In this document: piece by piece, positions 16,313-33,688 of the stretch
Layout of the letters: each line of letters begins with the position of its first letter
Position numbering within the stretch: position 1 is the first letter of the stretch
NCBI GenBank assembly: GCA_016192035.1
Contig: JACPUW010000032.1
Coordinates: forward strand, 1,450-65,449
Length of the DNA stretch: 64,000 nucleotides
Reading direction: 5' to 3'
From: Bacteroidota bacterium
GTDB taxonomy: Bacteria; Bacteroidota; Bacteroidia; CAILMK01; JACPUW01
The notes under the pieces: generated by a model
Seen by the model: the letters and a program-made list of their open reading frames with translations, nothing else
Told to the model about the DNA's origin: nothing
Databases searched by the model: none
Made by a program: the position numbers and the translations under genes

Positions 16313-17596
16313 TTACTTGATATACAGCTTTTTGGTGCTAATCTCGCCACCTGCCCTCAGGGTTACCAAGTACAAACCCGGTTGAAAAGCACTTACATCA
16401 AGTACCATCTCATCGCCTGAAGTTATTTGCCGCTTGTGGTACACGGTTTTTCCAGTGATGTTTACTACCTGCAAGTCCAGTTCGCCCCCATTGGTCCAGG
16501 CCAAGCCTTTCACTACCAATTTGTCATGGGCGGGGTTGGGGTACAATGCTACTTGGGCCAATGATTCAGCGGGTTTGATGCCTATACCTACCTCCTTTAC
16601 CTTGCGTATCAAGTGATTGTCAAAATCGGCTACATATAGGCTTTTCTCGGCATCCACATACATCATCTGGTACACCATTTCAAACATGGCAAATGTGTCG
16701 CGCTTGTTGGTCTTATACCCACAATCATTTGCAAAGGTGCTTCCGGCCATTACTTGGAATTTATCGGTGCCTACCTCATAGCGGCGCAGAGAGCACCCGT
16801 CTGAGAGCACCCATTGGTTGCCTACTTTTTCTATATCGGTAACATTGAATAGGTTGCCCATATTGAATGACCAATCGTAATCAGGAAAAAGGCTCACCGT
16901 GCTCACTTTTCCACCCGAAATTTTGCGCACTGCCCCGGCATCGGCCACATAAATGTCATTGCCATCGATATACAGGCCCGTAGGCGATAGAAACTTGGCT
17001 TTGGAGAGGGCGTCACCATCATCCGTACCTGTTTTGCCTACTTGTCCGGCTATGATGCTAACGGTACCGGCCGCGTCAATTTTCTTAACCACATAGTTCT
17101 GTCTGTCTGCTACATATAGGTTTCCCACCGCATCCACTTCCACATCGGATGGATCGTTAAAACCGGTAAAGTCAGCCGCCATGCTTGAGGTAATAGAAGT
17201 AAGGTTTGAAATGTTTATCAACCGCACCACATTGTTTCCGGCATCACATACTACCATGATTTCGTTTCCGCCGCGTTCGGTAATGAGAATGCCTTTGGGC
17301 GATGAAAAACGTATGGCCACCCCCTGCCCGTCGGTATAACCAGGGGTGTTTACGGCCCCAACAGCCATTTTAAAGGAAGATCCATTGTGATATACCAAGT
17401 TATGCCCACCTGTGTTGCAAATCCAGAGGTTGCCCCGGCTGTCAAAGGCCATACCGTAGGGCTGGTTGATATTATTAGATGGCTTTCCAACCGCTCCTAA
17501 ATGATCGGTAACCTCATAGTTCTGAGCCCGTACCGGCTGGATCGTTGTCGCTAGCAAAATGCAGGCAGCGTACATGATAGTAATAGCTGATCTCAT
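16313..17596 (-). CDS. NHL-repeat beta-propeller protein with T9SS type-A C-terminal sorting domain
   Basis: The C-terminal ~80 aa (LYPNPAHDKLVV…LDVSAFQPGLYLVTLRAGGEISTKKLYIK) match the Por_Secre_tail / type-A CTD. NHL-like repeats precede it. The start is reassigned to the internal ATG at 17596 (MRSAITIMYAACILLATTIQPVRAQ, a signal peptide). This removes the ORF-track overlap with purC. Confidence 0.7.
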   Translation of the reverse strand: MRSAITIMYAACILLATTIQPVRAQNYEVTDHLGAVGKPSNNINQPYGMAFDSRGNLWICNTGGHNLVYHNGSSFKMAVGAVNTPGYTDGQGVAIRFSSPKGILITERGGNEIMVVCDAGNNVVRLINISNLTSITSSMAADFTGFNDPSDVEVDAVGNLYVADRQNYVVKKIDAAGTVSIIAGQVGKTGTDDGDALSKAKFLSPTGLYIDGNDIYVADAGAVRKISGGKVSTVSLFPDYDWSFNMGNLFNVTDIEKVGNQWVLSDGCSLRRYEVGTDKFQVMAGSTFANDCGYKTNKRDTFAMFEMVYQMMYVDAEKSLYVADFDNHLIRKVKEVGIGIKPAESLAQVALYPNPAHDKLVVKGLAWTNGGELDLQVVNITGKTVYHKRQITSGDEMVLDVSAFQPGLYLVTLRAGGEISTKKLYIK

Positions 17597-17606
17597 AGAA
17601 ATTGAA

Positions 17607-18590
17607 TTAGCTGCCAAAAATAAACTTATAGTGCCAATCAGGCAACTGCTGTAGGAAAGCGAGAATGGAATGTTCCATAAGTTGGGCCACCTCTCCCCGC
17701 TCAGAACCCTGAAACGGTTTGCCCAAGAGCCGTTCATAAAGTTCAAAATACCTGGTTTGAATAAGTTCCACCCTTTCATTGTCCATTTGCGGCATAGACT
17801 GTCCATCCAGGCCTTGAAATCCTTGCTGTATAAGCCATTCCCGCACAAATTCTTTGGAAAGGTGGGTCAGTGGAAGCCCTTTTGAGATGTTTTCTGCATA
17901 CCCATCAAGGTAAAAATACCTGGATGAGTCAGGTGTGTGGACCTCATCTATGAGCATAACCTTATCGCGGTAAAGGCCAAACTCATACTTGGTATCGGCG
18001 AGTATGAGTCCGCGCTGGTGGGCCATGCGGGTACCCATCTCAAAAAGTTGCCGGGTATATTGCTCCATTTCCATATACACCTCATGGGGTACCAAGCCGG
18101 TATCCAGTATTTCTTCACGGCTTATGTCCATGTCATGGCCTTCTGGCGCTTTGGTGGCAGGTGTTATGATGGGCACAGGAAAAGCCATGTTTTCCCTAAG
18201 GCCATCGGGCAGCGCTACCCCACAAAGGCTTCTTGCACCTCCCTCATAGATACGCCAGGCATGGCCCACACAGTATCCCCTGATAACCATTTCAATACGG
18301 ATAGGCTCTGCCTTAATCCCTACCGAAACCGCAGGATGCGGGCAGCCCAGTAGCCAGTTGGGCACCACAGGGCGGGTATCTTCAAGAAAATGAGCCGCTA
18401 TCTGGTTGAGCACTTCGCCCTTGTAGGGTATGGGTTTGGGCAGTATATGGTCAAAGGCCGAAATGCGGTCGGTGGCTATCATCACCAGCAAATCGCCTTT
18501 TAGTTCATACACTTCACGCACCTTGCCGGTGTATTTGCCTATTTGTCCCGGAAAATGAAAATCCGTCTGTGTAATGGCTATTTCACTCAT
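17607..18590 (-). CDS. purC: Phosphoribosylaminoimidazole-succinocarboxamide synthase (SAICAR synthetase)
   Basis: The 327-aa ORF has the long-form PurC N-terminus (…GKVREVYELKGDLLVMIATDRISAFD…). Confidence 0.9.
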   Translation of the reverse strand: MSEIAITQTDFHFPGQIGKYTGKVREVYELKGDLLVMIATDRISAFDHILPKPIPYKGEVLNQIAAHFLEDTRPVVPNWLLGCPHPAVSVGIKAEPIRIEMVIRGYCVGHAWRIYEGGARSLCGVALPDGLRENMAFPVPIITPATKAPEGHDMDISREEILDTGLVPHEVYMEMEQYTRQLFEMGTRMAHQRGLILADTKYEFGLYRDKVMLIDEVHTPDSSRYFYLDGYAENISKGLPLTHLSKEFVREWLIQQGFQGLDGQSMPQMDNERVELIQTRYFELYERLLGKPFQGSERGEVAQLMEHSILAFLQQLPDWHYKFIFGS

Positions 18591-19660: not shown

Positions 19661-20461
19661 ATGACGGTAGTGACTTTGACTTCAGACCTAGGTACCGGTG
19701 ACTACCACGTGGCTGCGGTAAAGGGCACCTTGCTACAAACTGCTGCACCCATACAACTGGTTGATATAAGCCATGATATCAAACCGTACAACTACATTCA
19801 TGCCGCACGGGTGGTAGATGGTTGTTTCCGCGACTTTCCGAAGGGAAGCCTCCACTTGGTGGGGGTAGAAGGGGACTTTGGCCGAAAGAATGAATGGTTG
19901 CTGGCACACGTGGAAAACCACATGTTCATCGTGAAGAATACTGGATTTCTGTCGCTTATAAGCCCTGAGCCCCCAGGTTGGTGTTACTTGTTGCCGGTGA
20001 ACGGATCCCAAAGTTTGAAATTCCCATTAAAAAGCATTGTTGCACAGGCGGCCCTGGGGCTACTGGATGGCAAAAAACCCGCATCCCTGGGCAGCCCCTT
20101 CCAGCAATTGGTAGAAAGCCGAAACCTGAGCGCGAGTATCATGCAGCAATCCATACGGGGCCAGGTAGTACATATAACACCTTACAACAACGTGGTAACC
20201 AACATACACCGACGCGATTTGGAGAATTTCGGCCACTTTAGGACTTGTAAAATCCACTACAACCGCCTTGATTACTTTGACCGGATATACAACTCATACC
20301 ACGACGTGCCCGAAGGAGCAGCCGCATGTTTTTTTGGGAGCGATGGCTTTTTGGAAATAGGCATACACGGTGGTAATGCCCACTCACTTTTGAATATGCA
20401 CGAGGGAAAATATATCACACTAGAATTTGACAATCCAAAACATGATACAGCGACTGGTTAA
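19661..20461 (+). CDS. SAM hydroxide adenosyltransferase family protein (DUF62; fluorinase/chlorinase-related)
   Basis: The 266-aa ORF has the N-terminus VTLTSDLGTGDYHVAAVKGTL…VDISHD, which is characteristic of the SAM_adeno_trans family. Confidence 0.65.
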   Translation: MTVVTLTSDLGTGDYHVAAVKGTLLQTAAPIQLVDISHDIKPYNYIHAARVVDGCFRDFPKGSLHLVGVEGDFGRKNEWLLAHVENHMFIVKNTGFLSLISPEPPGWCYLLPVNGSQSLKFPLKSIVAQAALGLLDGKKPASLGSPFQQLVESRNLSASIMQQSIRGQVVHITPYNNVVTNIHRRDLENFGHFRTCKIHYNRLDYFDRIYNSYHDVPEGAAACFFGSDGFLEIGIHGGNAHSLLNMHEGKYITLEFDNPKHDTATG

Positions 20462-20462
20462 A

Positions 20463-20738
20463 ATGGAGTTTACGCCGGAGGGGACCGTGGCATTCTTGGA
20501 AAATTTTGACCGGGTAAAGGACAAGATACGGGCACAAGAAGGGTGTGTACACTTAGAACTGCTACGGGATATACACCATTCCCACACACTATTTACAAGA
20601 AGCCTCTGGAAAGGCCCCGAATATTTGGAGCGGTATAGAAAGTCAGACTTGTTCCAAGAAACCTGGGCTTTTACCAAATCGCTATTTGCTTCGCCAGCCC
20701 AGGCTTGGTCGGTGGAGACCATACGCGAGTTGCCATAG
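20463..20738 (+). CDS. Antibiotic-biosynthesis-monooxygenase (ABM)-like small protein
   Basis: The 91-aa ORF is taken from the internal ATG at 20463 of ORF 20427..20738. It has the ABM-like pattern (…EGCVHLELLRD…LFTRSLWKGPEYLERY…). Position 20463 directly follows the upstream stop. Confidence 0.5.
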   Translation: MEFTPEGTVAFLENFDRVKDKIRAQEGCVHLELLRDIHHSHTLFTRSLWKGPEYLERYRKSDLFQETWAFTKSLFASPAQAWSVETIRELP

Positions 20739-20789
20739 CGCAAAAACTTTACACGGGCTTGGCCGCCAGTCAATACCCGAGGCCATAAA

Positions 20790-21623
20790 TTGCAGGCCAT
20801 GACCAGGGTTTTCCATATTTGTACTTGTCTTTTCGCTTTTGTGCAATGCGTTGTTGGCCAGCCATCTATTCTGGGTATAGGCCCCCAATCACGGGCCATG
20901 GGCGGTGTGGCGAGCACCTTGTCAAATGCCTGGTCGGCGGCCAATAACCAAGCATGCCTGGCCATGTTAGAAACGGCCCAATTAGGTGTGAGCGCCGTGC
21001 GACACTACAACTTGGGAGAACTGACCCAGGGCCACATTTCAGGTGCATTGCCCATTAAAAAATTTGGCAATCTGGGATTTAGTTTCAGTCACCTGGCCAT
21101 GACAGATGTAATGTCCGACGATAGGTTTGGCCTTTCGCTGGGCAGAAAATTTGGCCCCAATTTTTCAGCTGGCATTCAGCTTCAATTACTTTGGTTCAAC
21201 CTTCCTGCCTACGGCAACCGGGTTGCGCTATCACCGGGCATGGGGTTTTTATACTTACCCAATCCATTACTCTCCATAGGTGTGTATGCGCGCAACATCT
21301 TTACCCTTTTTGGCAAGCAGGATAATACCGGTTTGTTGCCACCAACCGCCGTGATGGGCATCAGCTATGTGCTCAGCGAGAAGCTGACAGCCTATGCCGA
21401 TGCAGGATTTTCAGTGGCCCAGGGGGCTAACATGATGATAGGGGCAAGCTATAAGCCAAACAAAAGGCTAAGACTTAGGGCTGGGGTATCTACGGCCACT
21501 TTTACCTATTCTTTGGGCCTTGACATTCGCTTCGGGTCCATTAACGTACTAGTAGGCATATCACACCACCAACGGCTGGGGGCCAGCCCCGAACTAGGCA
21601 TGAACTATGGCACCGCTCAATAG
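20790..21623 (+). CDS. Short FadL/PorV-like outer-membrane protein (family uncertain; PorP/SprF-like not excluded)
   Basis: The 277-aa ORF has a signal peptide. The mature N-terminus GIGPQSRAMGGVASTLSNAWSAANNQACLAML resembles the FadL/OmpP1/PorV N-terminal motif. Confidence 0.45.
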   Translation: MQAMTRVFHICTCLFAFVQCVVGQPSILGIGPQSRAMGGVASTLSNAWSAANNQACLAMLETAQLGVSAVRHYNLGELTQGHISGALPIKKFGNLGFSFSHLAMTDVMSDDRFGLSLGRKFGPNFSAGIQLQLLWFNLPAYGNRVALSPGMGFLYLPNPLLSIGVYARNIFTLFGKQDNTGLLPPTAVMGISYVLSEKLTAYADAGFSVAQGANMMIGASYKPNKRLRLRAGVSTATFTYSLGLDIRFGSINVLVGISHHQRLGASPELGMNYGTAQ

Positions 21624-23661
21624 AATCTGGTTTGCCATAGCCATTATTTGGCTTCCGTCGGCAGCCTTGTCACAATCCGAGTCGGAGTTGGTGCAACAGG
21701 TAATGGAGTATATACTTGAAAACGAAGAAACTGAGTTAGACTATACCGACCTCCAACTTGACCTGTTGGGCTATCTACAGAAACCCTTGGATATAAATAA
21801 GACCAATCACCACGAATTGGGGCTTTTGGGATTTTTAACCGAACCGGAAATAGCAGCCATTCTTGCCCACCGCCAGCTATATGGCCAATTTATTTACACC
21901 TATGAACTGCAAAGCGTAGATGGCCTGGGCCTTGACCGGGCCAAATTGCTCTCCAATTTTGTGCAGTGTGGCGAGGGCGCACAAAAGGCATCACTTAGCG
22001 AAATGGTACACGAGGGCAAAGGCGATTTGCTAGTGAGATACAAGACCATAGTGCAGCAACAAGCGGGATATATCAGCAACATATCGGGCGAAAAAACCTA
22101 TGAGGGCAGCCCCTTTCAACTCATGTGTAGGGCAGGATACCGCTACAACAACAGGCTCAGCCTGGGCCTAACCGCCGAAAAAGATATGGGCGAGGCATTT
22201 TTAAGTGGAAACCAAGGACAGGGCTTTGATTTCTACTCAGGCCATATACACTATGCACACAGCGGCTTGTTCCGTTCGCTATGCTTGGGCGATTACCAGG
22301 TTCAGTTTGGCCAAGGAGTGGCACTATGGAGTGGCCTTTCATTTGGCAAGAGTGCCGAACCCCTACTGGTAGCCCGGCGTCCAAGAAAACTATTGCCTTA
22401 CCGGTCAATTAACGAGAACCAATTTCTAAGAGGCGCCGCTGCCACATTCGGGCTTGGCCCTTGGGAACTCACCGCCTTTGTCAGTAAGAAAAAACTGGAT
22501 GGGGCAGTGGGTTATGATAGCCTTGGCCAAGCCCTTTCGCATAGCACCTTATCACTGGATGGATTTCACCGAACCGCTTCGGAATTAGCAAAAAAAGACG
22601 CGATTGGCGAACAAATACTGGGATCGTGCCTGGAATGGAACAGAAAAGGTTACCGCGTAGGAGCCGTATATGCCCTTACCTCCTACACACCTGGCATGCA
22701 AAAACCCAACAGTCCGTACCAGTTACACGATTTATACGGCAAGGGGTACGCTACCTCCAGTGTGTACCATGCAGGTTCACTTGGAAAGGTGTACTTATTT
22801 GGCGAACTGGCTATCAATAACCTTGACCTAAACACCCTAAGCGGCATACAAGGTTTGATAGCCCCGCTTACCAATACCATGGAAATAGCCTTACTCCATA
22901 GGCACTATAGGCCTGGGTACCATACGGCCTACTATGGCGCATTTAGGGAGCAGAGCAAAGTGGAAAACGAAGCCGGGACCTATGTGGGCATTCATTATGC
23001 GCCACATACCCATTGGCTGTTCAAGGCCTACATTGACCGGTTTCGCTTTCCATGGTTGCGGTACCAGGCCGACATGCCCAGCTATGGGCATGAATACCTT
23101 GTGGAGGTGCAGTATAAACCCAGCCGAAATTTTGTGATGATAGGCCGGATAAGGAGCCAACTCAAGGAAGCGAACCTACCCGGTGATGCTGGTCATTTGT
23201 CGCCACTGGTGGGGGAGTCAACTACCCACTACAGGCTCCAAGCCAGGTTCAACACCATAGCAGGCCTAACCGCCACTTGTAGGGGTGAATATGCCGCTTA
23301 TACAAGGGCCGGGGGCACGCGCTATAGCGGCGCCCTGGTATTTCAGGATTTTGCATTTAAGCCCTTGGATAAAAAGTACCACCTATGCATGAGGTATGCC
23401 GTGTTTCATGTACAAGATTATGGTGCAAGGATTTACGCCTATGAAAACGACGTGCTGTATGCCTACTCCGTGCCCGCCTATACCGGGCGCGGTCAACGCA
23501 TGTACATACTCCTGAAATACAAACCCCTACACGGAATGGAGTGCTGGCTTCGGTACGCGGTGACCCAGTATAGCGACCGCAGCACCATAGGCACCGGAAA
23601 TGAAACCATAGCGGGCAATACGCGAGGTGAACTCAAGGTGCAGGCCAAGTTCCGGTTTTAA
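21607..23661 (+). CDS. Large outer-membrane protein with N-terminal helix-hairpin-helix (ComEA-like) segment
   Basis: The 684-aa ORF has a signal peptide and an HhH-like segment (ELGLLGFLTEPEIAAILAHRQLYGQF). The remainder is rich in Gly/Tyr/aromatics and ends in a terminal …KFRF, the beta-barrel OMP signal. It overlaps the upstream gene by 17 nt, so the two are translationally coupled. Confidence 0.5.
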   Translation: MAPLNRIWFAIAIIWLPSAALSQSESELVQQVMEYILENEETELDYTDLQLDLLGYLQKPLDINKTNHHELGLLGFLTEPEIAAILAHRQLYGQFIYTYELQSVDGLGLDRAKLLSNFVQCGEGAQKASLSEMVHEGKGDLLVRYKTIVQQQAGYISNISGEKTYEGSPFQLMCRAGYRYNNRLSLGLTAEKDMGEAFLSGNQGQGFDFYSGHIHYAHSGLFRSLCLGDYQVQFGQGVALWSGLSFGKSAEPLLVARRPRKLLPYRSINENQFLRGAAATFGLGPWELTAFVSKKKLDGAVGYDSLGQALSHSTLSLDGFHRTASELAKKDAIGEQILGSCLEWNRKGYRVGAVYALTSYTPGMQKPNSPYQLHDLYGKGYATSSVYHAGSLGKVYLFGELAINNLDLNTLSGIQGLIAPLTNTMEIALLHRHYRPGYHTAYYGAFREQSKVENEAGTYVGIHYAPHTHWLFKAYIDRFRFPWLRYQADMPSYGHEYLVEVQYKPSRNFVMIGRIRSQLKEANLPGDAGHLSPLVGESTTHYRLQARFNTIAGLTATCRGEYAAYTRAGGTRYSGALVFQDFAFKPLDKKYHLCMRYAVFHVQDYGARIYAYENDVLYAYSVPAYTGRGQRMYILLKYKPLHGMECWLRYAVTQYSDRSTIGTGNETIAGNTRGELKVQAKFRF

Positions 23662-23749
23662 GTTTGTGTGAGCAAATTGGTTTAAACCCGTAAGTCAGTG
23701 AAACTTTTTAGCTTTGCCGTACTTGTAAGCAGGTATCAATTTCAATAAC

Positions 23750-24331
23750 ATGAACATACAAATTATCCGGGTAGTCCTTTGGGTAGTCATTGCTTTCCTG
23801 GCATATAAAATAGTGAGTGTGGTCTATGCCGATATTCGGTTCTCGCGGATAAAGGCCATGAAAGAAACAGCACGGGTAGAGCGCATGGAAAAAATCCGAT
23901 CCTTGCAGTTTGCCTACCGCGACCAGTACAGGAAGTTTTCAAAAGAATGGGACGAACTACTTCAGTATGGCAAGGAAGGTAAAATCATGATTATCAAAAC
24001 CACGGGTGACCCTAACGATACCACCATAGAGGTGAAAAGGGACACGAGCTATATATCGGTGATTGACTCACTTTTTCAAGGCAACAAGGCACTGGTAGAT
24101 TCCCTGCCCCTTATTCCCTATTCCAAAACCCAGGCAAAATTTGCATTGGAGGCTGACAAAATCAACTTGCGGCAAGTGATGGTAGATGTGTTTCAGATAA
24201 CCGATACCGACCCCATATACCAAGACCCGGAACAAAAAGAGCCATCAGGGCCCGATGAATACCCGCTACAAATAGGAAACATGGGCACCGCCAACTATGA
24301 CCTAAATAGGGACCCACGATTGAAAAAGTAA
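23750..24331 (+). CDS. Hypothetical membrane-anchored protein
   Basis: The 193-aa ORF has one N-terminal TM helix (IIRVVLWVVIAFLAYKIVSVV) followed by a soluble domain. Confidence 0.4.
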   Translation: MNIQIIRVVLWVVIAFLAYKIVSVVYADIRFSRIKAMKETARVERMEKIRSLQFAYRDQYRKFSKEWDELLQYGKEGKIMIIKTTGDPNDTTIEVKRDTSYISVIDSLFQGNKALVDSLPLIPYSKTQAKFALEADKINLRQVMVDVFQITDTDPIYQDPEQKEPSGPDEYPLQIGNMGTANYDLNRDPRLKK

Positions 24332-24477
24332 TACATAGCGTTGATTACCAAGAGCTGTCGCCAGAAATAGCAATCGGTTGCCGCTTATATGAAAGCTACT
24401 CGCCAAGCTACTATTGCGCAGCGGCATACCAACCGGGCGACCGGCGGTTCTTAGCCCTTTTCTCCCTATTTGGCCCC

Positions 24478-25119
24478 TTGGCAGGGGCATCTTCTTCCAC
24501 TTATGCGCCACCATGGCTACAACTTGAGTTTGGCGAGCGGCTAGCCTGGAGTAAGGGCCATGTGATTTCCTTGGTACCAGACGTATTTTTTGATGGTGCA
24601 TTGGCAAAAGATTATTTGAAACAAACCGGAGCCCCTAGGCCCAAACATACCCGGTTTTCACATCTCGAAGCCCTGGGGTGCTATATAGTCTATGAAGAAA
24701 AAGCCATGACACAGGGACACTCCTTTGGCCATCTCATTGACCACTTGGCCTGTACGGTGCTTCCTTTCAACCCAAGTTTTCTCCACTTTCACTTGGATGT
24801 GGACTGCCTGTTTTTGGCCACTTTTTCAAATGGCAAATTGTTCTTGGCCAACAGTTTTCGTTTTAACACCAAAGAAGATATCCTGTATTACTTGGTTGCG
24901 GTGGCAGAGCAATCTGGCATTAAACTGTCAGAACATAGGGTAAGCTATAGTGGATTCTTACGGCCTACCTCCGCGCTAAAGCGCATGCTCATGGAGTATA
25001 TTCCTGATGTAGTGCCAATAGATTTGAGCATACACCACATTACATTTCCACCCCCCATCACACCTGACCTACAGCACATGTACGCCGATATGTTTATTTT
25101 GCCGCTATGCGGATTATAA
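24478..25119 (+). CDS. DUF3822-like hypothetical protein (start uncertain, non-ATG)
   Basis: The ORF-track start is TTG. The frame is open from 24310 with no in-frame ATG. The segment …FNTKEDILYYLVAVAEQSGI… resembles DUF3822 proteins, which commonly precede rsmD in Bacteroidota. It overlaps rsmD by 13 nt. Confidence 0.4.
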   Translation: MAGASSSTYAPPWLQLEFGERLAWSKGHVISLVPDVFFDGALAKDYLKQTGAPRPKHTRFSHLEALGCYIVYEEKAMTQGHSFGHLIDHLACTVLPFNPSFLHFHLDVDCLFLATFSNGKLFLANSFRFNTKEDILYYLVAVAEQSGIKLSEHRVSYSGFLRPTSALKRMLMEYIPDVVPIDLSIHHITFPPPITPDLQHMYADMFILPLCGL

Positions 25120-25649
25120 GTGGGCTACACAAGGGCTATCCCATCAAAGCACCCAAAGGACTTCCCACGCGCCCTACCACCGATAGGAGCAAGGAGGGAT
25201 TATTCAATATTCTGTGCAATTGGTACGACTTTGAAAATTGCGATGTGCTTGATTTATATTGCGGTACGGGCAATATCACCTATGAGTTTGCTTCGCGCGG
25301 GGCAAAATCGGTGGTTTCAATAGATAGGCACAAGCCCTGTGTGGACTTTGTAAAATCTCAGAGCGCTCAACTACAAATGAATCAGGTCCAGGTTGTTCAA
25401 TCAGATGCACTTGATTTTCTCAGGGCTACCCCATTGAAATTTGATATAGTATTTGCCGACCCACCCTTTGCTACCAAAGACTACGAAGCCCTACATGGGT
25501 ACATAGTTTCTAAAAACATGGTGCATGACAAGGGCTGTTTTATTATGGAACATCATTCGGTGCATAATTTTAGCCATTTGGCGCATTTTTCCCAAGCCAG
25601 GCACTATGGTCAAAACGTGATCAGCATTTACGAGATCGACGGACAATAA
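25107..25649 (+). CDS. rsmD: 16S rRNA (guanine966-N2)-methyltransferase
   Basis: The 180-aa ORF has MRIISG…LDLYCGTG (SAM-binding) and the catalytic DPPF motif. Confidence 0.85.
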   Translation: MRIISGLHKGYPIKAPKGLPTRPTTDRSKEGLFNILCNWYDFENCDVLDLYCGTGNITYEFASRGAKSVVSIDRHKPCVDFVKSQSAQLQMNQVQVVQSDALDFLRATPLKFDIVFADPPFATKDYEALHGYIVSKNMVHDKGCFIMEHHSVHNFSHLAHFSQARHYGQNVISIYEIDGQ

Positions 25650-25650
25650 A

Positions 25651-25680
25651 AAAGCCCCTCTTTTGGAGGGGCTTTTTTTA
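25651..25680. terminator. Bidirectional rho-independent terminator
   Basis: An A-run (25649-25653), stem GCCCCTC (25654-25660), loop TTTTG, stem GAGGGGC (25666-25672), then a T-run (25673-25679). It lies between the rsmD stop (+) and the stop of the 1969-aa gene (-). Confidence 0.7.
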
Positions 25681-25696
25681 TGTAAACCTAGGGCGA

Positions 25697-28600
25697 TTAT
25701 CTCACCAAGGTAATGGTTCCGTTTGCCGGAATCATTTCTGTTTCACCCTTAAACCTTGACTTAAACACAAAGAAATACGTACCTGGAGCGGCATTTCCTC
25801 CTTCGGTCCTGTTGGTGCCATCCCAGAATTTGCACACCGTGGTCTGGGTTTCTTCCTTGAAATAGCACTCCAGTTCATCGTCTTGGTCAGCGCGCATCAT
25901 AATGGCGCCCCAGCGGTTGTAGATGGTAAGTTCCCACTCAGGCACCACTTGCAACTGCATTTCCCACCAGTCGTTGACACCGTCGCCATTGGGGGTTATC
26001 ACGTTGTAGAACTGGAGTATGGGTTCTACAATTAACCGAACAACGGCCCTATCTGTACAAGCCCTGGCATCATCTGGATCTACGTAATCAGATACCAAAA
26101 GCTCCACCATGTATTCACCTTCAGTGAAATCGACATATACAAATCGGCTACTGTCAGAATAGGTTTCCTCATGTATCACTGTTAGGGTATCGGGCAATTT
26201 AAATACCCTCCAACGGCTATACAGTGCATTCAGTGATCGGTTAAGGAAGACGTAGTTGCCCATGGCCTCGTTGGAACGTTCGTCAACTTCTATTTCCGCT
26301 TTCACTTCCTTCACGTTAATGGTCACTGCATCGGTCAATGGGCAGATAGGGAAATCACCCAAACCAATAGCCGTGATGCTATACTTACCGGGCTCGGCAT
26401 AGACCTGTCCTATCTCCTCTGCTACCGCTTTGGCATACACCGAATTCTCCAATCCCATATTCCAAACTACCGAATTATACCCTGTGTAGGTGGAATCTGC
26501 CACCACAGAGAAGATGATTTCTTCGCCAGGGCAGATCACATAGTCACTGGCCTTAATGGTAAATGGATCATAGTCGCGTACTGTTACGGTTATCGTATCT
26601 TCCGTGGGGTCATCAGGGTTCGGATAAACGTCAAGACATTGTTTTTCAACACCTGTAATAGGATCATTAACCTTGGCAGAGACACCCACCGTTATGTTAT
26701 ATTTCCCTGGCTTATCAAAGTAAAGCCCCACTTTCCTTCGCTTCTTGAAATCTGAAATTGCTTGTGCCAACACAGGATCGGTAGTCCAATAGCTCTGAGT
26801 CCTTTCTTCAAAACTGCTACTATCTATGACATAGGCAGAATCATTGACACAAATCACGTCTTGGGGCAAGAAAAACTTAGCCTGAGGCCCTATAATTTTA
26901 ATATAGAACTTCTTTGTTATTTCATCTTCACAACCTTGCATAGTCTTTACTTTCAATCTCACAGTGTAGCCACTGTCATGGGCGTCTAGGTAAGTGTGGA
27001 TGGGGTTTTGGAGGATTGATGTGTCCCTTTCATCACCAAAATCCCATGACCAATAAACTACCGAATCCATCTTACCCTTGGTAACAGATCTACCGCTCGG
27101 CACATCTTCTTTATTTTCAATAATTTCAGATGTATCCTTAAACTCGATAGATGAAGGGGTACACACCAATATCGTATTGCAGGTATCACATACACCAAAG
27201 AATGCACGCACTCCGAGCACACGAACGGCGTTTTGTTTGGTATTTGGTGTCCAGCAGCCCATGCTATCGCGCGCCCAAAGGGTCACATCATAAACTCCCA
27301 CTCCAAACTTTTCACCATACTTTTTGGAAGGTCCATAAGTCCATTGGGTAGAACGCCATGCTGTATTCATATCCCAGTTGTATTTGCCATAACCTGGGAC
27401 ACCATTCTGAATTGAATCGGCGGGGTTAATCCACACTTCTATATTGGCCGAATCCATAACCCGCTGATAGTCCTCCATACGAATACGTAATCCATTGACA
27501 TCAAGCGAATCAGTACCATCGGCTTTGGTAAGGTAACGCTGGGCATCAAAGTCCCATGCTATCATTTCCTTGTACAGAGGCCCTGTATATCCCGCTATGT
27601 TTTTGTACCAAAAATATCGGGCAGCCGAACTATCGGGATTGTAGAAATAGCCATTTGAGTCAATGCATGTGGTGTTTTCCCACCATTCATTTAATTCGCA
27701 AAACACCTGGCCACCTGGATGCCAGTAATAGACTGAGTCGTTGAAGGTAACTGTTTGGAAATTGCACAGCACACTGTCGTCATACCTAAATGCCTGATGC
27801 TGACCCAGCCATATTTCTTTCGATGAGCCTCCAAAACAGAAGTCCGCTCCATGTTGGGCTTTGGTTGTGGAGGTAATGATGTATTTGCCCGGTTCCTTCA
27901 ATAGGTAGTTAACCGTGTCGCGCAGGTTAACCAATTTGGTATCGCCCACTTGCAGTGCCATATATCCATCAGGCATCATCAGGAGTGAGTCGGCCAACAT
28001 ACTTTTTGCTGCAAAACCATTTTGACTTGCCGATTTAACTATGAAATACTTGAAGTTGCGAAGTGAATCACGCGAAAGACAAGCGGACTTACCCCTATTG
28101 TTTCCGTCAAGGGTATCATTCCTCCTATAATCCTTTACCGATAGGATAATTGGATAAGGCAGTTTTGTAGGTAGCAAGTGCGGTTCCCTGGCTATACAGT
28201 CTGTAAACTCTATGGCATTTACCACATCGGGACGCTTCTGGCCTTCATTGCCTGCCGGCCTGCCGTCGGTTTCTTCCACCACGCGGGTCCTTGGATTGGG
28301 CGACACTAGGAATTCCCCGTTGGCATCTATAAAATAGCGGTAATTCTCATAGAAGAAGGTATCAAAACAGTCGCCTACCTTGATAACAATACCAGGTGTT
28401 TTGCAGCCGGCCGTACCGTAGCTCCAGCGCATACCTATCAATTGTAGGATCATTTCAGGAATCCAGCCACACTCATAATAAAAAGTGTCCACCTCCTCAT
28501 AACCATACACTATTATAGGGCGGCCACCCGATCCCGCATTGGCTGAATCGACAATCACCATTTTTACCCGGCCATTGTCCTTAATGCCCCCGGTTTGCTG

Positions 28601-31600
28601 CCTTACGTTCACACTCTGTAAGAAACCAAGGTTAGAAATGGTGGCAACACCTTTTGCCCGTACGGTACCATATACACCTGGGGTAATCAAATCGCGCCAT
28701 TCCACATTGTATGTGCCGCCCTTCTTGCCACTGCCTCGATTGATGATTTCGGTTTTTACAATTTTCCCCGCTCCGTCAGTTGTACACGATATCTTGTTGC
28801 AATCGTTGTCGGTAGGGTCATCGTTCTTGCCTTGATATTGGTTATCGCGGTTAAATATCATCCAGAAAGTCTCCCTTCCACAAAGTGGTATGGTCTGGGC
28901 TATATTGATGCGCTGGAAGTAAGGGTTTGCCGCGTTGCCCACGCAAGGAGCGGCACCACGGCCCAATTCTACCCCTTTTCTAAAGTCATTGCCATTTTGG
29001 TCCTTCTGAAATTGAGGTTGGTTATAGTAGTTCACAGAATCTACGGTGGCAAAACCCTCGGGATCTGCTGGGCCGCCATCGGGCTCTTGCATCACAATGG
29101 GTTGTTGATCACTTGATTCGCAATCGTTTACAGGATCATATACCGTCAACATGGCTGTCCAGCAACCATCGGTGGCATATAGGTGCTGTGGGGCTGCAAT
29201 CTCAGAGTACAGGCACCGAAGTGGATCGCCCGAAGGATTGCTTCCCTTTACCAACATGGATGTTCTACTGGCATCATAGTAAGTGGTGCATTGATCGCCG
29301 TCGTCCCCAAAGTTCCAGAGGTAGTACATACTGTCAGAAGCCCAAGGGTAATTGATGTTGTCCCTGCACGAATCCAGGTTGTTGGCACCAATAAAAGCCG
29401 CCGACATATTGTCCATATCGTGCATACCATGGGTTGGGATGGTATTGTAATCCCTGCCAAATAGCCTATATTTCAAACTGTTATTCTTAAAGGTAACCAA
29501 GTTTGGCGCTTTACAGTCAAACTTAAACTTATCGGAATCGTGCATGGTGCGCCATTCGTCGTCGCAGTCGGGAGGCAATGTGCCTGCGTACATGGCAGGA
29601 AAATGAAGTCCCCCTTTGTGCTTAATGGGGCTTCGCACAATGCGGTATAGGTAGTTAACCCCGCTTATGGTGATTTTGTGCGCCCTTAAGTAGGGTTCGT
29701 GCACCCAGAATGTGGTATAAACCTTAGGCCCCCCGCCTATTGGGGCTATGGAGTCTGTAATTTGGAGGGAATCCACTACCGGAATAGGGTCTGAGTAATC
29801 CCAAGTAGGTCTAAATGCCTGTGAGAATTGGTTGTAACGATAGCGCCAATTCCCGTTCACCCCATTGTCAGGTGCTTCATACACAGGTATGGAATCTATA
29901 ACATATGGGTTGCGCGGTATGGTATCGCCCTTTTTAAAGTAAAAGCTATCGCACAAGAAAGAGTAGAACCCATCAATGGTAGCTATAAATGATGTTTGAT
30001 CATAAAACACGGTATCACCTGCGCGTATGAATTTGGTGATACCCGGAGTCCTTACGGCATCCTTCGTCTGGTGCTTGTTAAAAATGGGTTTGCTCACCCA
30101 GCCATCTTTTTCGGCATAGTAAAAATTGGGCCCACATGCCGTGGCATCGTCGCCCGCTGCACCGAGTGAAACGGCATAGGAATCTATGTTGGCATTGCAA
30201 TAGACAAAGTAGCTGTCCCTCTTGGTTTTTTGCCTATGGTCCACCCACACATAGTCTATGGTTTGAATGCCCGATGAGGCACGATAGCACTCGTCATATT
30301 TGATTTTTTCAAATGCAGCGCGGGTTACTTCCCGCGGATCCACACAATTGTTTGCCGGAAACTCGGGTGGAGGTGGGAGGTTTATGGCCGCCGAGGGCCC
30401 CCTGAGCTTTACGAAACAAATGGTGGTATCACGGGTGGGGCATGGGGGCTCTGTAATGGCCAAACTGATGTTATAAAAACCTGGACCACCGACAAACTGG
30501 TGCGAAGGGCTCCAGCTATCGCGGTTCACGTTTAATTGTTGTGAGGCGGGGTCTCCAAAAGTCCACGTCCATTGGGTGGCATTTGGCCTGGGTGGGTGTA
30601 TAAAGGTGATGCTATTATTGGTAAAGCATGGGGTATCTGGCAACCATACAATATCAAATTTGAAATTGATGGAGCGTATGGCGTCTTTTAATATAAAGGT
30701 CTGTTCGCACCCATCTCTGGCCACTATGGTCAACGAAGGGGATTTATATCCATCGCTACAGTATTTCCTGGTAAAACCTGTCCACCAATTGTTGTAGTCT
30801 TCATTGCCCGGGCTGCGCATATAGAAGGTTTGAACCGACTTCTTCCCAGAGGTGCCAAAATTCCAAATCCAATGATCGATCAAGGAGGTGTCAAATGGCG
30901 TCCGGTTGTTAAATTTAATTTCCGTGCAAGGACAGCCCACGGGTCCAGATACGGTGAACCTAGCTCCAATGTCATTATACACTTCGGGGTGTGCTTTTCG
31001 TACTTTCACATCATTGCATCCCTTCTCGTCGGTTACCGTATAGACAATGTCAAAGTTTCCGCCCTGTGGGTAGCTATGGCAAATGGTAGGTTTGTTAGAC
31101 CCCGCGCCATCGCCAAAGTCATAAAAGTGTTTGGTTAGTTTGTGCCCTTCCTTACCGGGTACTGCCAAGCTACTAAAACAGAATTCATTGTCCTTAAAGC
31201 ACTGCGCAGTATCGCTCGTAATCTCGTAATCGGCCACCGGGTTGGAATAAACCAATATGGGGGCTGTAAGCAAATAATCCTTCCAGGTAGTGCCTGTTTT
31301 AATCTTTAGTATCGGGTTATAAGTCCCGGCATCGAAATTTCTTCCAAAAGTCCTAACGGTGCCTGAGGGCAACCAGTCGTCGTGTCGGACTATACGCGTT
31401 GTGCCCACCCAGACTTCCACGGAATCCACCGCCGCCCCGCTTATGTCAGCCGAAAAGGTGACCAGGTGCGGTTCACAACCCTCATATGGGTTGCCAATGC
31501 CTGAAATGCTGAATGTTACGGTTTGTGCCAACAGGGAGTTGGTTGGCAGCAGGCCTACTAAGGCAATAAGCCATAGCAAGGATGCGCCTGGGAGTTTCCG

Positions 31601-31606
31601 TTTCAT
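25697..31606 (-). CDS. Giant (1969 aa) cysteine-rich cell-surface protein with T9SS type-B C-terminal sorting domain (SprB-class adhesin-like)
   Basis: It has a signal peptide MKRKLPGASLLWLIALVGLLPTNSLLAQ. The C-terminus …YNVITPNGDGVNDWWEMQL…ELTIYNRWGAIMMRAD…FWDGTNRTEGGNAAPGTYFFVFKS…GTITLVR matches the gliding-motility-associated CTD (type B). The body is very long and rich in Cys/Trp/Tyr/Asn/Gly, consistent with multiple Ig/PKD-like domains. Confidence 0.75.
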   Translation of the reverse strand: MKRKLPGASLLWLIALVGLLPTNSLLAQTVTFSISGIGNPYEGCEPHLVTFSADISGAAVDSVEVWVGTTRIVRHDDWLPSGTVRTFGRNFDAGTYNPILKIKTGTTWKDYLLTAPILVYSNPVADYEITSDTAQCFKDNEFCFSSLAVPGKEGHKLTKHFYDFGDGAGSNKPTICHSYPQGGNFDIVYTVTDEKGCNDVKVRKAHPEVYNDIGARFTVSGPVGCPCTEIKFNNRTPFDTSLIDHWIWNFGTSGKKSVQTFYMRSPGNEDYNNWWTGFTRKYCSDGYKSPSLTIVARDGCEQTFILKDAIRSINFKFDIVWLPDTPCFTNNSITFIHPPRPNATQWTWTFGDPASQQLNVNRDSWSPSHQFVGGPGFYNISLAITEPPCPTRDTTICFVKLRGPSAAINLPPPPEFPANNCVDPREVTRAAFEKIKYDECYRASSGIQTIDYVWVDHRQKTKRDSYFVYCNANIDSYAVSLGAAGDDATACGPNFYYAEKDGWVSKPIFNKHQTKDAVRTPGITKFIRAGDTVFYDQTSFIATIDGFYSFLCDSFYFKKGDTIPRNPYVIDSIPVYEAPDNGVNGNWRYRYNQFSQAFRPTWDYSDPIPVVDSLQITDSIAPIGGGPKVYTTFWVHEPYLRAHKITISGVNYLYRIVRSPIKHKGGLHFPAMYAGTLPPDCDDEWRTMHDSDKFKFDCKAPNLVTFKNNSLKYRLFGRDYNTIPTHGMHDMDNMSAAFIGANNLDSCRDNINYPWASDSMYYLWNFGDDGDQCTTYYDASRTSMLVKGSNPSGDPLRCLYSEIAAPQHLYATDGCWTAMLTVYDPVNDCESSDQQPIVMQEPDGGPADPEGFATVDSVNYYNQPQFQKDQNGNDFRKGVELGRGAAPCVGNAANPYFQRINIAQTIPLCGRETFWMIFNRDNQYQGKNDDPTDNDCNKISCTTDGAGKIVKTEIINRGSGKKGGTYNVEWRDLITPGVYGTVRAKGVATISNLGFLQSVNVRQQTGGIKDNGRVKMVIVDSANAGSGGRPIIVYGYEEVDTFYYECGWIPEMILQLIGMRWSYGTAGCKTPGIVIKVGDCFDTFFYENYRYFIDANGEFLVSPNPRTRVVEETDGRPAGNEGQKRPDVVNAIEFTDCIAREPHLLPTKLPYPIILSVKDYRRNDTLDGNNRGKSACLSRDSLRNFKYFIVKSASQNGFAAKSMLADSLLMMPDGYMALQVGDTKLVNLRDTVNYLLKEPGKYIITSTTKAQHGADFCFGGSSKEIWLGQHQAFRYDDSVLCNFQTVTFNDSVYYWHPGGQVFCELNEWWENTTCIDSNGYFYNPDSSAARYFWYKNIAGYTGPLYKEMIAWDFDAQRYLTKADGTDSLDVNGLRIRMEDYQRVMDSANIEVWINPADSIQNGVPGYGKYNWDMNTAWRSTQWTYGPSKKYGEKFGVGVYDVTLWARDSMGCWTPNTKQNAVRVLGVRAFFGVCDTCNTILVCTPSSIEFKDTSEIIENKEDVPSGRSVTKGKMDSVVYWSWDFGDERDTSILQNPIHTYLDAHDSGYTVRLKVKTMQGCEDEITKKFYIKIIGPQAKFFLPQDVICVNDSAYVIDSSSFEERTQSYWTTDPVLAQAISDFKKRRKVGLYFDKPGKYNITVGVSAKVNDPITGVEKQCLDVYPNPDDPTEDTITVTVRDYDPFTIKASDYVICPGEEIIFSVVADSTYTGYNSVVWNMGLENSVYAKAVAEEIGQVYAEPGKYSITAIGLGDFPICPLTDAVTINVKEVKAEIEVDERSNEAMGNYVFLNRSLNALYSRWRVFKLPDTLTVIHEETYSDSSRFVYVDFTEGEYMVELLVSDYVDPDDARACTDRAVVRLIVEPILQFYNVITPNGDGVNDWWEMQLQVVPEWELTIYNRWGAIMMRADQDDELECYFKEETQTTVCKFWDGTNRTEGGNAAPGTYFFVFKSRFKGETEMIPANGTITLVR

Positions 31607-31656: not shown

Positions 31657-32976
31657 CTATCTGTTTAGGGATACAAGTCCCTTTATGGTTTCCGTAATGC
31701 TGTTGTCGCAAGGATTGGGATACTGTATTATATAGGTATATAGTCCAGGTTCGCACAAGGTGCCTTGGTTCATCCAAGAGCCATCCCATTCGTCACCCAT
31801 TCCATGACCTGATTTATATACAAGCACCCCTGATTGGTTATAGACTTCTAGTTCCATTTGCCCCTGGCCTTCTGCTACTTGGGGGAGCTTCACCCCAAAG
31901 ACATCGTTTTTGCCATCGCCATTCGGGGTAAAAATATTGGGTATCAACGGCCTCTTATGCTCTGTGGAAGCTGCGGCATGTAATACCATTTCCGCAGTAT
32001 CCCTACAATCTCCTTGTTTCACAATAAGTTGTAACCCCTTAGGCCCTGAATTCCCAAAGCCGACTTCCACGGTCTGCCCAGCATATTGCCGTGAGTCAAT
32101 ATTCCATAGGAAATCAAGATTCTTATCGGCCACCCCATACACCCGATATTGCCCGCAATGGGTTTCCTCTATGTCAATCTTGGCTTTCGGCCTTTCGGAT
32201 ACCACTATTTGCTTCTTGAGCAAAACCCTGGAACCCTTATCCAGCATCTCCAGGACTTCTAGCTCATAGTTTCCGGGCATAGTGATGGACAATCTTTTCT
32301 TTTGGCCAATTCCCCCTTGTTTAACCACAATTTTACTCTTTACTTCAAACAATCGATAGATATACAGATGATTGGCAATGGGATTGGCAATTGTAAGTTC
32401 CACCACATCATTGGCACAAACCTTTGAAGAAGAAACACTAGCCAAAGGGGGCTTTTTACCACTTTCTAACAGTTGATCTTTGGTAGAGTCCACCATGCTG
32501 CCGGCACGAGCTACACCCTTTCCCAACATGTTCTTACCGGTATCCCCACTTTTAGCTTTGTTCCCCACTCCTTTTGAAAGGGGCTCATTATCGCCCTGAT
32601 CTTTATAAGGTTCTGCCGTATCGGAAAGCCGACCATTTTCTGGCCCATTATCCTCAATGGAATTTGATGAATTATCTAAATTTTCCCCTTGATTTACAAA
32701 TACTTGTTCATGTATCAAGGTTGTTTCTTCCTTTTCGGCCTCCTCTTGCCAACTTGCATTTACCCACAACGTGGTGATTACCAATGCAATTCCTGCAATT
32801 GATGCAATACCCCAAAGCCCTACGCCACCACCAAGGCCGGTTTGTGGACCGCCTTTGGCAGGTACTTGGGCTGATGTCGCCAAACGCCCTTGCACCCGCT
32901 CCCAATCGGCACCCACTTCGTCAGTTGTGTGCGGGGCGCTATGGTTGCTGAAATGTGCTTTAAGTTGGTCCATCAA
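31657..32976 (-). CDS. Membrane-anchored anti-sigma-like protein ending in a T9SS type-B C-terminal sorting domain
   Basis: The 439-aa ORF has no N-terminal signal peptide. It has a ~54-aa charged N-terminus, then one TM helix (GLWGIASIAGIALVITTLWV), then a ~130-aa acidic low-complexity linker and small beta-rich domains. The C-terminus …IFTPNGDGKNDVFGV…ELEVYNQSGVLVYKS…WDGSWMNQG…PGLYTYIIQY…GLVSLNR matches the type-B CTD. It starts 6 nt after the ECF sigma stop. Confidence 0.6.
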   Translation of the reverse strand: MMDQLKAHFSNHSAPHTTDEVGADWERVQGRLATSAQVPAKGGPQTGLGGGVGLWGIASIAGIALVITTLWVNASWQEEAEKEETTLIHEQVFVNQGENLDNSSNSIEDNGPENGRLSDTAEPYKDQGDNEPLSKGVGNKAKSGDTGKNMLGKGVARAGSMVDSTKDQLLESGKKPPLASVSSSKVCANDVVELTIANPIANHLYIYRLFEVKSKIVVKQGGIGQKKRLSITMPGNYELEVLEMLDKGSRVLLKKQIVVSERPKAKIDIEETHCGQYRVYGVADKNLDFLWNIDSRQYAGQTVEVGFGNSGPKGLQLIVKQGDCRDTAEMVLHAAASTEHKRPLIPNIFTPNGDGKNDVFGVKLPQVAEGQGQMELEVYNQSGVLVYKSGHGMGDEWDGSWMNQGTLCEPGLYTYIIQYPNPCDNSITETIKGLVSLNR

Positions 32977-33515: not shown

Positions 33516-33688
33516 TCGGATGCGTAGCCTTGCATGGTTGTACAAGCCAAAACTACGAAACAAGCTACCCCTTAGTTGCCTTTGGTGGCCTAAACTGTCT
33601 TTTACATCTATAGTTTGGCACTCCTGGGCCTCGTAGCCCGCCTTATGATGCTTACGGTAACTTCGCCACATTAAAAAAAGCACACTGC

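Follow-up and report, generated by a model that had tools for sequence, protein, structure and literature searches.

A conserved outer-membrane gene pair of Bacteroidota, predicted to encode a minimal FadL/PorV barrel and a 24-strand barrel, adjoins comEC in one deep clade

Two neighbouring genes, here named P1 and P2, in the window (the whole 64-kb stretch of DNA that was analysed) very probably make up a two-gene outer-membrane module that is conserved in Bacteroidota and consists of a minimal FadL/PorV barrel and a 24-strand barrel. What is new here is the location of comEC directly downstream of P2 throughout one deep clade of the family. We infer, at a probability of roughly 40%, that P2 is the outer-membrane component of a ComEC-dependent DNA-uptake route in these bacteria.

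Results

P1 (20790..21623, plus strand) encodes 277 amino acids when read from its TTG start and 274 from the first ATG at 20799. P2 (21607..23661, plus strand) encodes 684 amino acids, predicted to form a signal peptide, an acidic helical N-terminal domain with a ComEA-like (HhH)2 module, and a 24-strand barrel. The ATG of P2 at 21607 is located inside P1, whose TAG stop was read at 21621-23, and the two genes overlap by 17 nt (21607..21623, plus strand), as previously noted and as both the ORF coordinates and the sequence confirmed. Judged from the sequence, this overlap indicates translational coupling; overlaps or gaps of a few nucleotides between P1 and P2 were also found at loci L001, L002, L037, L061 and L083. 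Since both proteins belong to large families, with at least 449 homologues of P1 in a P1 profile search and at least 881 of P2 in a word-seeded search, P1 and P2 are real genes and not chance ORFs. The signal peptides that the preliminary description had assigned to both proteins were supported by the AF2 models, each of which opens with a hydrophobic helix at residues 2-19. That of P1 (20799..20858, plus strand; MTRVFHICTCLFAFVQCVVG) is probably cleaved before a Gln, and that of P2 (21607..21672, plus strand) is followed by Gln23, invariant in 60 of 60 sequences. The NCBI call of the protein identical to P1 (P0121, 241 aa) begins at Met37, without the signal peptide region. A promoter and terminator scan of positions 20300-25800 gave counts no better than in shuffled sequences, and the PADLOC defence-system models had no match.

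The conservation of the gene pair was determined at genome and metagenome loci. P1 was located upstream of P2 on the same strand in 77 of the 78 testable genome loci, directly adjoining it in 74; the two are thus conserved as neighbours, as the preliminary description had required for its reading. Across loci, the only recurrent flanking genes were P1 and P2 themselves. An adjacent P1 was missing from 23 testable metagenome loci, 20 of which were ComEC-linked. The downstream gene P3 (23750..24331, plus strand), which encodes a 193-aa single-pass membrane protein, had been described as a further member, and it falls outside the conserved module: a homologue followed P2 in one of 82 genome loci (L014) and in none of 74 metagenome loci. 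P3 had no Pfam, NCBIfam or PADLOC match, and folding of the P2-P3 spacer RNA gave no structure signal (z = -0.45).

The preliminary description considered P1 far too short for a FadL barrel. The structure model (pLDDT 91) indicates otherwise, since it shows a complete 14-strand FadL/PorV fold with N-terminal hatch and short external loops and with no truncation; the FadL superposition covers 249-252 of the 277 residues. The barrel (20979..21611, plus strand) comprises the DSSP elements E64-71 through E264-274. The hatch (20865..20969, plus strand) carries the most conserved motif of the family, G-x-R-S-x-A-M-G ... N-Q-A-G-L, in which G31, N53 and Q54 are invariant and R33, A55, G56 and L57 near-invariant among 62 P1 sequences, and this stretch aligns with the N-terminus of PorV.

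The FadL/PorV-like motif noticed earlier is real, although it scores below cut-off on the window sequence. Toluene_X (PF03349) gave 19.2 bits, over the N-terminal motif only, against a gathering threshold of 29.7 bits, and PorV_fam (NCBIfam NF033709) gave 30.4 bits (E 3e-7) against a cut-off of 90 bits. Family profiles and structure model agree on the assignment: the PorV/PorQ model was matched by all 62 family members, each below cut-off (best E 4.2e-23), PorV/PorQ is the closest sequence family of P1, and PorV is its best PDB sequence match. PDB sequence searches with single proteins, in contrast to those with profiles, returned no significant match. P1 has in common with PorV/PorQ the 14-strand FadL-type barrel and the N-terminal hatch, but is about 100 residues shorter owing to trimmed loops and has N-Q-A where PorV has N-P-A; it likewise shares the fold of FadL/TodX, with N-Q-A in place of the N-P-A of the FadL hatch. 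The model for BamG, a protein of the Bacteroidota BAM complex (9n2d_B, 9hjm_F, 9hj3_F), was matched weakly, and by few P1 members.

P2 is also modelled as a barrel (pLDDT 87.1, pTM 0.83), and the two models together are consistent with the earlier assignment of both proteins as outer-membrane beta-barrels. Its 24 predicted strands (22018..23658, plus strand) end in the ...KFRF beta-signal, and the terminal Phe, correctly read before as a barrel signal, is at least 90% conserved in the family. Long conserved external loops were found at L3 (40 aa), L4 (35 aa) and L11 (24 aa). The family comprises 5,445 cluster representatives at E<=1e-30 (clusters at 50% identity); the 150 of these that were listed have lengths of 652-744 aa, and with one exception each aligns to the profile in one continuous stretch over essentially its full length. 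No Pfam or NCBIfam model covers the barrel, the barrel has no specific solved relative, and a literature search found no paper describing the family, whose database labels are limited to 'HhH domain-containing' or 'ComEA family'.

Compared with large monomeric barrels, P2 gave TM-scores of 0.3-0.45, the level of generic barrels. Assignment as a TonB-dependent transporter, usher, LptD, AlgE or MtrB was rejected, as the likeness is that of any barrel and has neither domain nor sequence support. TonB-dependent transporters have 22 strands and the PapC/FimD ushers 24, but P2 carries no Plug domain (PF07715), TonB box or usher domain and has no sequence similarity to them. The Pfam scan of P2 likewise gave no Secretin match, and the model is a monomeric barrel. 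The barrel strands have a median net charge of +14.5; this was dropped as a sign of polyanion conduction because P1 is equally basic (pI 9.1).

A ComEA-like HhH segment in P2 had been proposed, and the family profile and the model both support a ComEA-type fold. The module (21784..21966, plus strand; residues 60-120) has a conserved scaffold and in the model shows the four-helix (HhH)2 pattern, with helices at 68-72, 79-92, 98-103 and 109-115. On the window P2, HHH_3 (PF12836) reached 15.6 bits against a gathering threshold of 27 bits; a precomputed PF12836 match is carried by many family members, and over positions 60-133 the family profile matched the HhH repeats of EEPD1 (1.9e-8) and the ComEA structures 8dfk (E 1.2e-5) and 8dss (2.9e-5). 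The module is preceded by acidic helices (21676..21783, plus strand; median family net charge -8), and the whole N-domain, about 113 residues ahead of strand 1, is strongly acidic (median net charge -12, pI 4.4).

The four-helix layout is that of ComEA, but ComEA is a small soluble or anchored periplasmic receptor, whereas the P2 module forms the N-terminal sixth of a 684-aa barrel protein. ComEA contacts DNA phosphates through Gly-hydrophobic-Gly hairpins; in P2 the Gly-x-Gly signature is gone from both hairpins family-wide, the ComEC-linked clade included. Hairpin 1 reads x-[LF]-L-[ST]-x, without Gly, and hairpin 2 reads [GY]-[FWL]-D in most members, G-L-G being kept there only by the window P2. 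The residues after the first hairpin are P-S-K in ComEA 8dfk and mostly acidic or neutral, e-l-q, in the P2 consensus. Canonical DNA binding by the P2 HhH module is therefore doubtful, given the loss of Gly-x-Gly and the acidic domain. The turn and loop lengths of the modelled barrel place the N-domain most likely in the periplasm rather than outside, which makes the extracellular DNA binding suggested in the preliminary description unlikely. In a distant homologue of P2 (631 aa; L152 and L154) most of the HhH module is missing, and P1 is not its neighbour.

Each of the four Sphingobacteriaceae genome loci has a gene encoding ComEC (PF03772 + DUF4131) directly 3' of P2 and in the same orientation; at L061 and L037 it overlaps P2 by 1-4 nt. 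In metagenomes, ComEC came next after P2 in 43 of 43 testable members of one neighbour-joining clade, which comprises 47 P2 sequences from Sphingobacteriaceae and relatives. Internal identity in this clade goes down to 34%, a depth equal to that of the whole family. At the P2-comEC junction the stop codon of one gene often overlaps the start codon of the next, whereas the outer neighbours differ between loci; a RecQ-like helicase was next after ComEC in 23 of the 43 loci. ComEC was absent next to P2 in other lineages and was not found within the 64-kb window, and the adjacency represents a single ancestral event in one clade. Thus the suggested link of P2 to nucleic acid is plausible, backed by the P2-ComEC operon of this clade; the part of it that relied on canonical HhH binding is the doubtful one.

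Discussion

P1 and P2 probably form one complex. Such a complex would parallel the docking of FadL-fold barrels on larger ones, as with PorV on SprA and BamG on BamA, and FadL-fold barrels are known as partner subunits in the BAM complex and the T9SS of Bacteroidota (PMC12611786). The partners differ: that of PorV is the much larger SprA barrel and that of P1 the 684-aa P2, which, unlike the BamG partner BamA, is not an Omp85 protein and shows no bamA/bamD linkage.

In the DNA-uptake model that we propose, the P2 barrel would provide the passage, or the site of passage, for DNA over the outer membrane. With 24 strands it matches the pilus ushers in size class and could admit double-stranded DNA once unplugged. 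The ComEA-like periplasmic domain would act at the pore exit, in DNA hand-on or in gating, after which ComEC would take in a single strand. Given its degenerate hairpins and its acidity, the HhH domain may be less a DNA clamp than an electrostatic cap or plug on the positively charged periplasmic rim or lumen, or alternatively the place where a separate, basic protein of the ComEA type docks. P1 could be a lateral partner that stabilises or gates P2. The gene order resembles that of the Bacillus comE operon, where comEA is upstream of comEC as the P2 gene is in the one deep clade. The proposed job is that of the PilQ secretin with its ComEA ratchet in Vibrio, Neisseria and Thermus, namely a wide conduit and a periplasmic HhH domain upstream of ComEC; PilQ, however, is a multimeric secretin, whereas P2 is modelled as a monomer and has no Secretin domain or pilus genes in its operon. 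That P1 and P2 make up a whole DNA-uptake machine, independent of pilus and secretin, specific to Bacteroidota and related phyla and with a diverged built-in ComEA module that feeds ComEC, is the more doubtful form of the proposal, and we consider it rather unlikely.

Transformation of Riemerella anatipestifer needs ComEC, DprA and ComF together with non-canonical outer-membrane proteins (PMC8459023). The beta-barrel, surface and HhH proteins encoded by RA0C_RS04915, RA0C_RS04920 and RA0C_RS02645, respectively, are essential for it, and pilus and secretin genes were not among the hits of that non-saturating screen of 3,000 mutants (PMC8459023). This work is the one genetic study of the step in Bacteroidota, and the Riemerella set, which likewise consists of Bacteroidota-specific, non-pilus envelope proteins acting with ComEC, offers the sole experimental precedent there for DNA uptake over the outer membrane by unconventional means. 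None of its members is an obvious P2 homologue; the outer-membrane proteins are others, and so is the HhH protein (PMC8459023). RS04915 is a CarboxypepD_reg-type barrel and RS02645, predicted to be periplasmic, has its HhH at residues 236-301, and the architecture of P2 differs from both.

A very large (about 5,400 clusters), uniformly built and uncharacterised family is thus described as a predicted 24-strand barrel with a FadL-fold partner, and its deep, strictly kept operon link to ComEC makes outer-membrane DNA entry in Bacteroidota directly testable. Bacteroidota are dominant bacteria of the gut, the soil and the ocean, and their exchange of genes is extensive. DNA is known to pass the Gram-negative outer membrane by type IV pilus/secretin systems and, in Helicobacter, by the ComB type IV secretion system; P1-P2 would add a third route if the proposal is true. 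Should the DNA hypothesis fail, the pair would still be the third case, after T9SS and BAM, of FadL-fold subunits in larger Bacteroidota machines.

Several observations count against the DNA-uptake reading: the degenerate hairpins and acidic N-domain, the HhH-poor homologue of L152 and L154, the restriction of the ComEC link to a single clade, the missing P1 beside P2 at 23 metagenome loci, 20 of them ComEC-linked, the lack of an obvious P2 homologue among the Riemerella hits, and the housekeeping neighbours elsewhere. The pair could instead be a complex for envelope transport or housekeeping in general, with no connection to DNA, its HhH domain repurposed as a periplasmic plug or protein-interaction domain and P1 passing a hydrophobic or amphipathic substrate laterally as FadL does. 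The ComEC adjacency would then be a lineage-specific accident of gene order, but accidental adjacencies rarely persist across such depth, and all 43 members that could be tested keep the junction, down to 34% identity, while their outer neighbours change; the P1 hatch, moreover, has N-Q-A and not the N-P-A of FadL. We regard this alternative as rather unlikely. A role as T9SS accessory, in which P1 would shuttle or anchor in the manner of PorV/PorQ, with P2 as its own partner, for a subset of the cargo, draws on the match of all 62 P1 members to PorV/PorQ, on PorV as best PDB sequence match, on the occurrence of the family in the T9SS phylum and on cargo genes nearby in the window (Por_Secre_tail at 16313-17848; CHU_C at 25697-31606 and 31657-32976). 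Genomes of this kind contain a great many T9SS cargo genes, so that finding some in a single window is no more than chance would give. Among 145 immediate neighbours at the 82 genome loci, three had a Por_Secre_tail domain and no T9SS core gene recurred, so that gene neighbourhood does not support the T9SS link suggested for the pair in the preliminary description; porV genes, however, are not necessarily linked to T9SS genes. Since, in addition, the PorV_fam score is far below its cut-off and P2 is unlike SprA, PorU and PorZ, an accessory role in T9SS is improbable.

P1 might also be BamG-like, and P2 a substrate-specific insertase or exporter, in the biogenesis of outer-membrane proteins or surface lipoproteins. 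The lateral opening of BamG holds the lipid-anchored N-terminus of its partner; P2 is not a lipoprotein, having no Cys after the signal peptide, and has no POTRA domain. The BamG similarity of P1 is below that to FadL and PorV, no bam gene is linked, and this reading leaves the operon with ComEC and RecQ unexplained, so that we give a biogenesis role little credence. Least probable is a polyanion exporter in the manner of AlgE or PgaA, whose electropositive barrel would let out extracellular DNA or an acidic polysaccharide. AlgE is among the top Foldseek matches of P2 (E about 4e-9) and the barrel strands are basic, but the TM-scores are low (0.29-0.43), as for generic barrels, and the charge does not discriminate, P1 being just as basic. 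Polysaccharide synthesis genes are not recurrent nearby, and ComEC is an importer.

In lineages other than the ComEC-linked clade the genes flanking the pair are housekeeping genes, for example those for PurE and ECF sigma factors. Neighbours with functions in nucleotide metabolism, judged too weak and too lineage-bound to serve as evidence, were PurE, PurC, Hpt, Adk and PyrD, together with an NPP-type phosphodiesterase in L001 and Metallophos proteins in 12 loci.

Conservation of the P1-P2 gene pair

The three open reading frames of the preliminary description were recovered at exactly the positions reported, namely P1 (20790-21623, +; TTG start, first ATG at 20799), P2 (21607-23661, +; ATG start, ending in KFRF) and P3 (23750-24331, +). 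The ATG of P2 precedes the TAG of P1 by 17 nt, confirming the gene overlap, and the hydrophobic signal sequence described at the N-terminus of both P1 and P2 is present. The NCBI protein HYZ16_07435 (241 aa) is identical to a fragment of P1, its annotated start being Met37 (window 20790-20900). A protein begun there would lack the signal peptide as well as three conserved residues of the hatch (G31, R33 and A36), so the deposited model has probably lost part of its N-terminus, and the ATG at 20799 is likely to be the true start of P1. All 60 aligned P2 sequences have Gln at the position that directly follows the predicted signal peptide (Gln23 in the window P2, 21673-21675); cyclisation of an N-terminal Gln to pyroglutamate is a hallmark of proteins that Bacteroidota export. 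The closest relatives of P2 are about 50% identical to it, except for one sequence at 93%.

The neighbourhood of P2 homologues was compared in 82 genome loci (two reached through the contigs of named homologues, 80 by scanning one genome per species) covering Flavobacteriales, Bacteroidales, Chitinophagales, Sphingobacteriales and Cytophagales. Enough upstream sequence was available in 78 loci, and 77 of these carry a same-strand P1 homologue upstream of P2, in support of the proposed pairing; it directly adjoins P2 in 74, one gene intervenes in three (L059, L070 and L080), and L045 is the only one of the 78 without P1. Clustering of all flanking ORFs revealed that P1 and P2 alone recur, next in frequency being PurE, immediately upstream in 15 loci, and an ECF sigma factor, seen in 13. 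We consider it secure that P1 and P2 are outer-membrane barrels encoded by a conserved pair of translationally coupled genes. P1 falls in the FadL/PorV/BamG fold class, and P2 represents a new family of 24-strand barrels whose diverged ComEA-like domain is probably periplasmic. A full-text literature search found no description of the P1/P2 family.

The otherwise tight coupling of the pair is interrupted in the two Pontibacter loci by a gene on the opposite strand (L059 3578-4837, -; L070 3645-4916, -), encoding a polytopic membrane protein of about 420 aa that looks like a Na+/H+ antiporter.

Linkage of P2 to ComEC

Competence (PF03772) and DUF4131 domains, which together mark ComEC, were present in four of the immediate neighbours in the genome loci, and these four are the Sphingobacteriaceae loci (L037, L052, L061 and L062). 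In them comEC lies immediately downstream of P2 and is read in the same direction; the two genes overlap by 1 nt in L061 and by 4 nt in L037, and 44 nt separate them in L062. Scanning metagenomes with the L061 P2 as seed yielded 74 more loci. When 142 full-length P2 sequences were arranged in a neighbour-joining tree, every ComEC-linked P2 fell in a single clade of 47 leaves. ComEC lies directly after P2 in all 43 clade members with downstream sequence, the remaining four stopping at a contig edge. Pairs within this clade share as little as 34% identity, which is also the median for pairs of one clade member and one P2 from outside it.

The P2-ComEC junction is invariant while the outer neighbours vary: upstream of P2 lies P1 or GyrB, and downstream of ComEC a RecQ-like helicase in 23 loci and other genes elsewhere. 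Such invariance usually signals functional coupling, although it traces to one ancestral event. P1 is not adjacent in 20 ComEC-linked loci. A sub-clade shows the order GyrB, P2, ComEC, RecQ-like helicase on one strand (L107 3989-10004; also L098-L123, L131, L143, L146 and L149); in L107, the sole locus for which exact ORF coordinates were read, overlapping stop and start codons run through P2-ComEC-RecQ. To our knowledge, coupling of a helicase to ComEC is unusual. The P2-ComEC adjacency is absent from other lineages, and the 64-kb window contains no ComEC.

Other neighbours include a gene of the NPP-type Phosphodiest/Sulfatase fold directly after P2 in L001 (8107-9042), a 353-aa Metallophos phosphoesterase near the pair in 12 ComEC-linked loci (L061 9965-11026 and 11 others) and, in other lineages, PurE, Hpt, Adk, PyrD and Nth. 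These genes may hint at nucleic-acid scavenging, although they are too weak to serve as evidence.

The HhH module of P2

The ComEA-like helix-hairpin-helix segment noted in P2 is a sound fold assignment, because positions 60-133 of the family profile match EEPD1 in its HhH repeats (1.9e-8) and ComEA in its DNA-binding domain (8dfk, 1.2e-5; 8dss, 2.9e-5), and the P2 model contains the four helices expected of the module (68-72, 79-92, 98-103 and 109-115). Column statistics and a 157-locus comparison showed that the Gly-hydrophobic-Gly signature is gone from both hairpins, the first reading x-[LF]-L-[ST]-x and the second [GY]-[FWL]-D; the G-L-G of hairpin 2 in the window P2 is an exception to this family-wide loss. 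Where ComEA 8dfk has P-S-K after the first hairpin, the family consensus is mostly acidic or neutral. The whole N-domain preceding the barrel is strongly acidic across the family (median net charge -12, pI 4.4), equally so in the ComEC-linked clade, the basic parts of P2 being the barrel strands (+14.5) and periplasmic turns (+9).

A distant 631-aa homologue (L152 3749-5644; L154 3860-5755) shares 27% identity over residues 103-684, which take in the whole barrel, and keeps the acidic leader helices with most of the HhH module missing. In both loci no P1 adjoins it and a LytTR two-component pair lies beside it on the opposite strand. The lost hairpin signature, the acidic N-domain and this HhH-poor homologue make canonical DNA clamping by the module doubtful, and a role as electrostatic cap, plug or docking element is at least as likely.

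Possible roles of the pair

Bacteroidota repeatedly employ barrels of the FadL/PorV/BamG fold as lateral partners of larger barrels (PMC12611786). A natural-transformation screen in Riemerella anatipestifer recovered ComEC, DprA, ComF and non-canonical outer-membrane proteins, with no pilus or secretin genes among the hits (PMC8459023). We propose, with a probability of roughly 0.4, that the P1-P2 complex forms the outer-membrane end of a ComEC DNA-uptake route, because of the ComEA homology, the ComEC/RecQ operon, the size class of the pore and the unsettled outer-membrane step in this phylum. The main rival, that the pair is an envelope transporter unrelated to DNA in which the HhH fold has been repurposed, is somewhat less probable than the uptake route. 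Less likely still are functions as a BAM or lipoprotein accessory or as a polyanion exporter.

A T9SS accessory is also less likely. The preliminary description had suggested this link from nearby type-B cargo, and the window encodes a protein with NHL repeats and a type-A Por_Secre_tail (16313-17848, -) and two type-B CHU_C proteins, a 1969-aa PKD protein (25697-31606, -) and a 439-aa protein (31657-32976, -), followed by an ECF sigma factor (32982-33683, -). The link was not borne out among neighbouring genes: T9SS sorting domains occurred in 3 of 145 immediate neighbours of the pair, so that the cargo genes in the window are most simply coincidental. No PorP/SprF-type partner gene is visible beside the type-B cargo in the window. 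Inclusion of P3 in the module likewise failed, since a homologue follows P2 in L014 alone among the 82 genome loci and in none of the 74 metagenome loci, and no family match was found.

Some gene boundaries in the window deserve mention. The 511-aa ORF of the NHL-repeat protein (TTG start) runs about 240 nt into the PurC gene (17607-18590, -); its real start is probably the internal Met preceding the signal-like MRSAITIMYAACILLATT... segment. A SAM_HAT (SAM hydroxide adenosyltransferase-type) gene and a small ABM monooxygenase gene (19661-20738, +) overlap by 35 nt and end about 50-60 nt before P1, which has the same orientation and with which they may be co-transcribed; in other loci they are not conserved beside the pair. 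Downstream of P3, a 13-nt overlap joins a DUF3822 gene to RsmD (16S rRNA m2G966 methyltransferase; 24478-25649, +); the listed DUF3822 ORF aligns with no more than the last two-thirds of the Pfam model, and the gene may start further upstream or be truncated.
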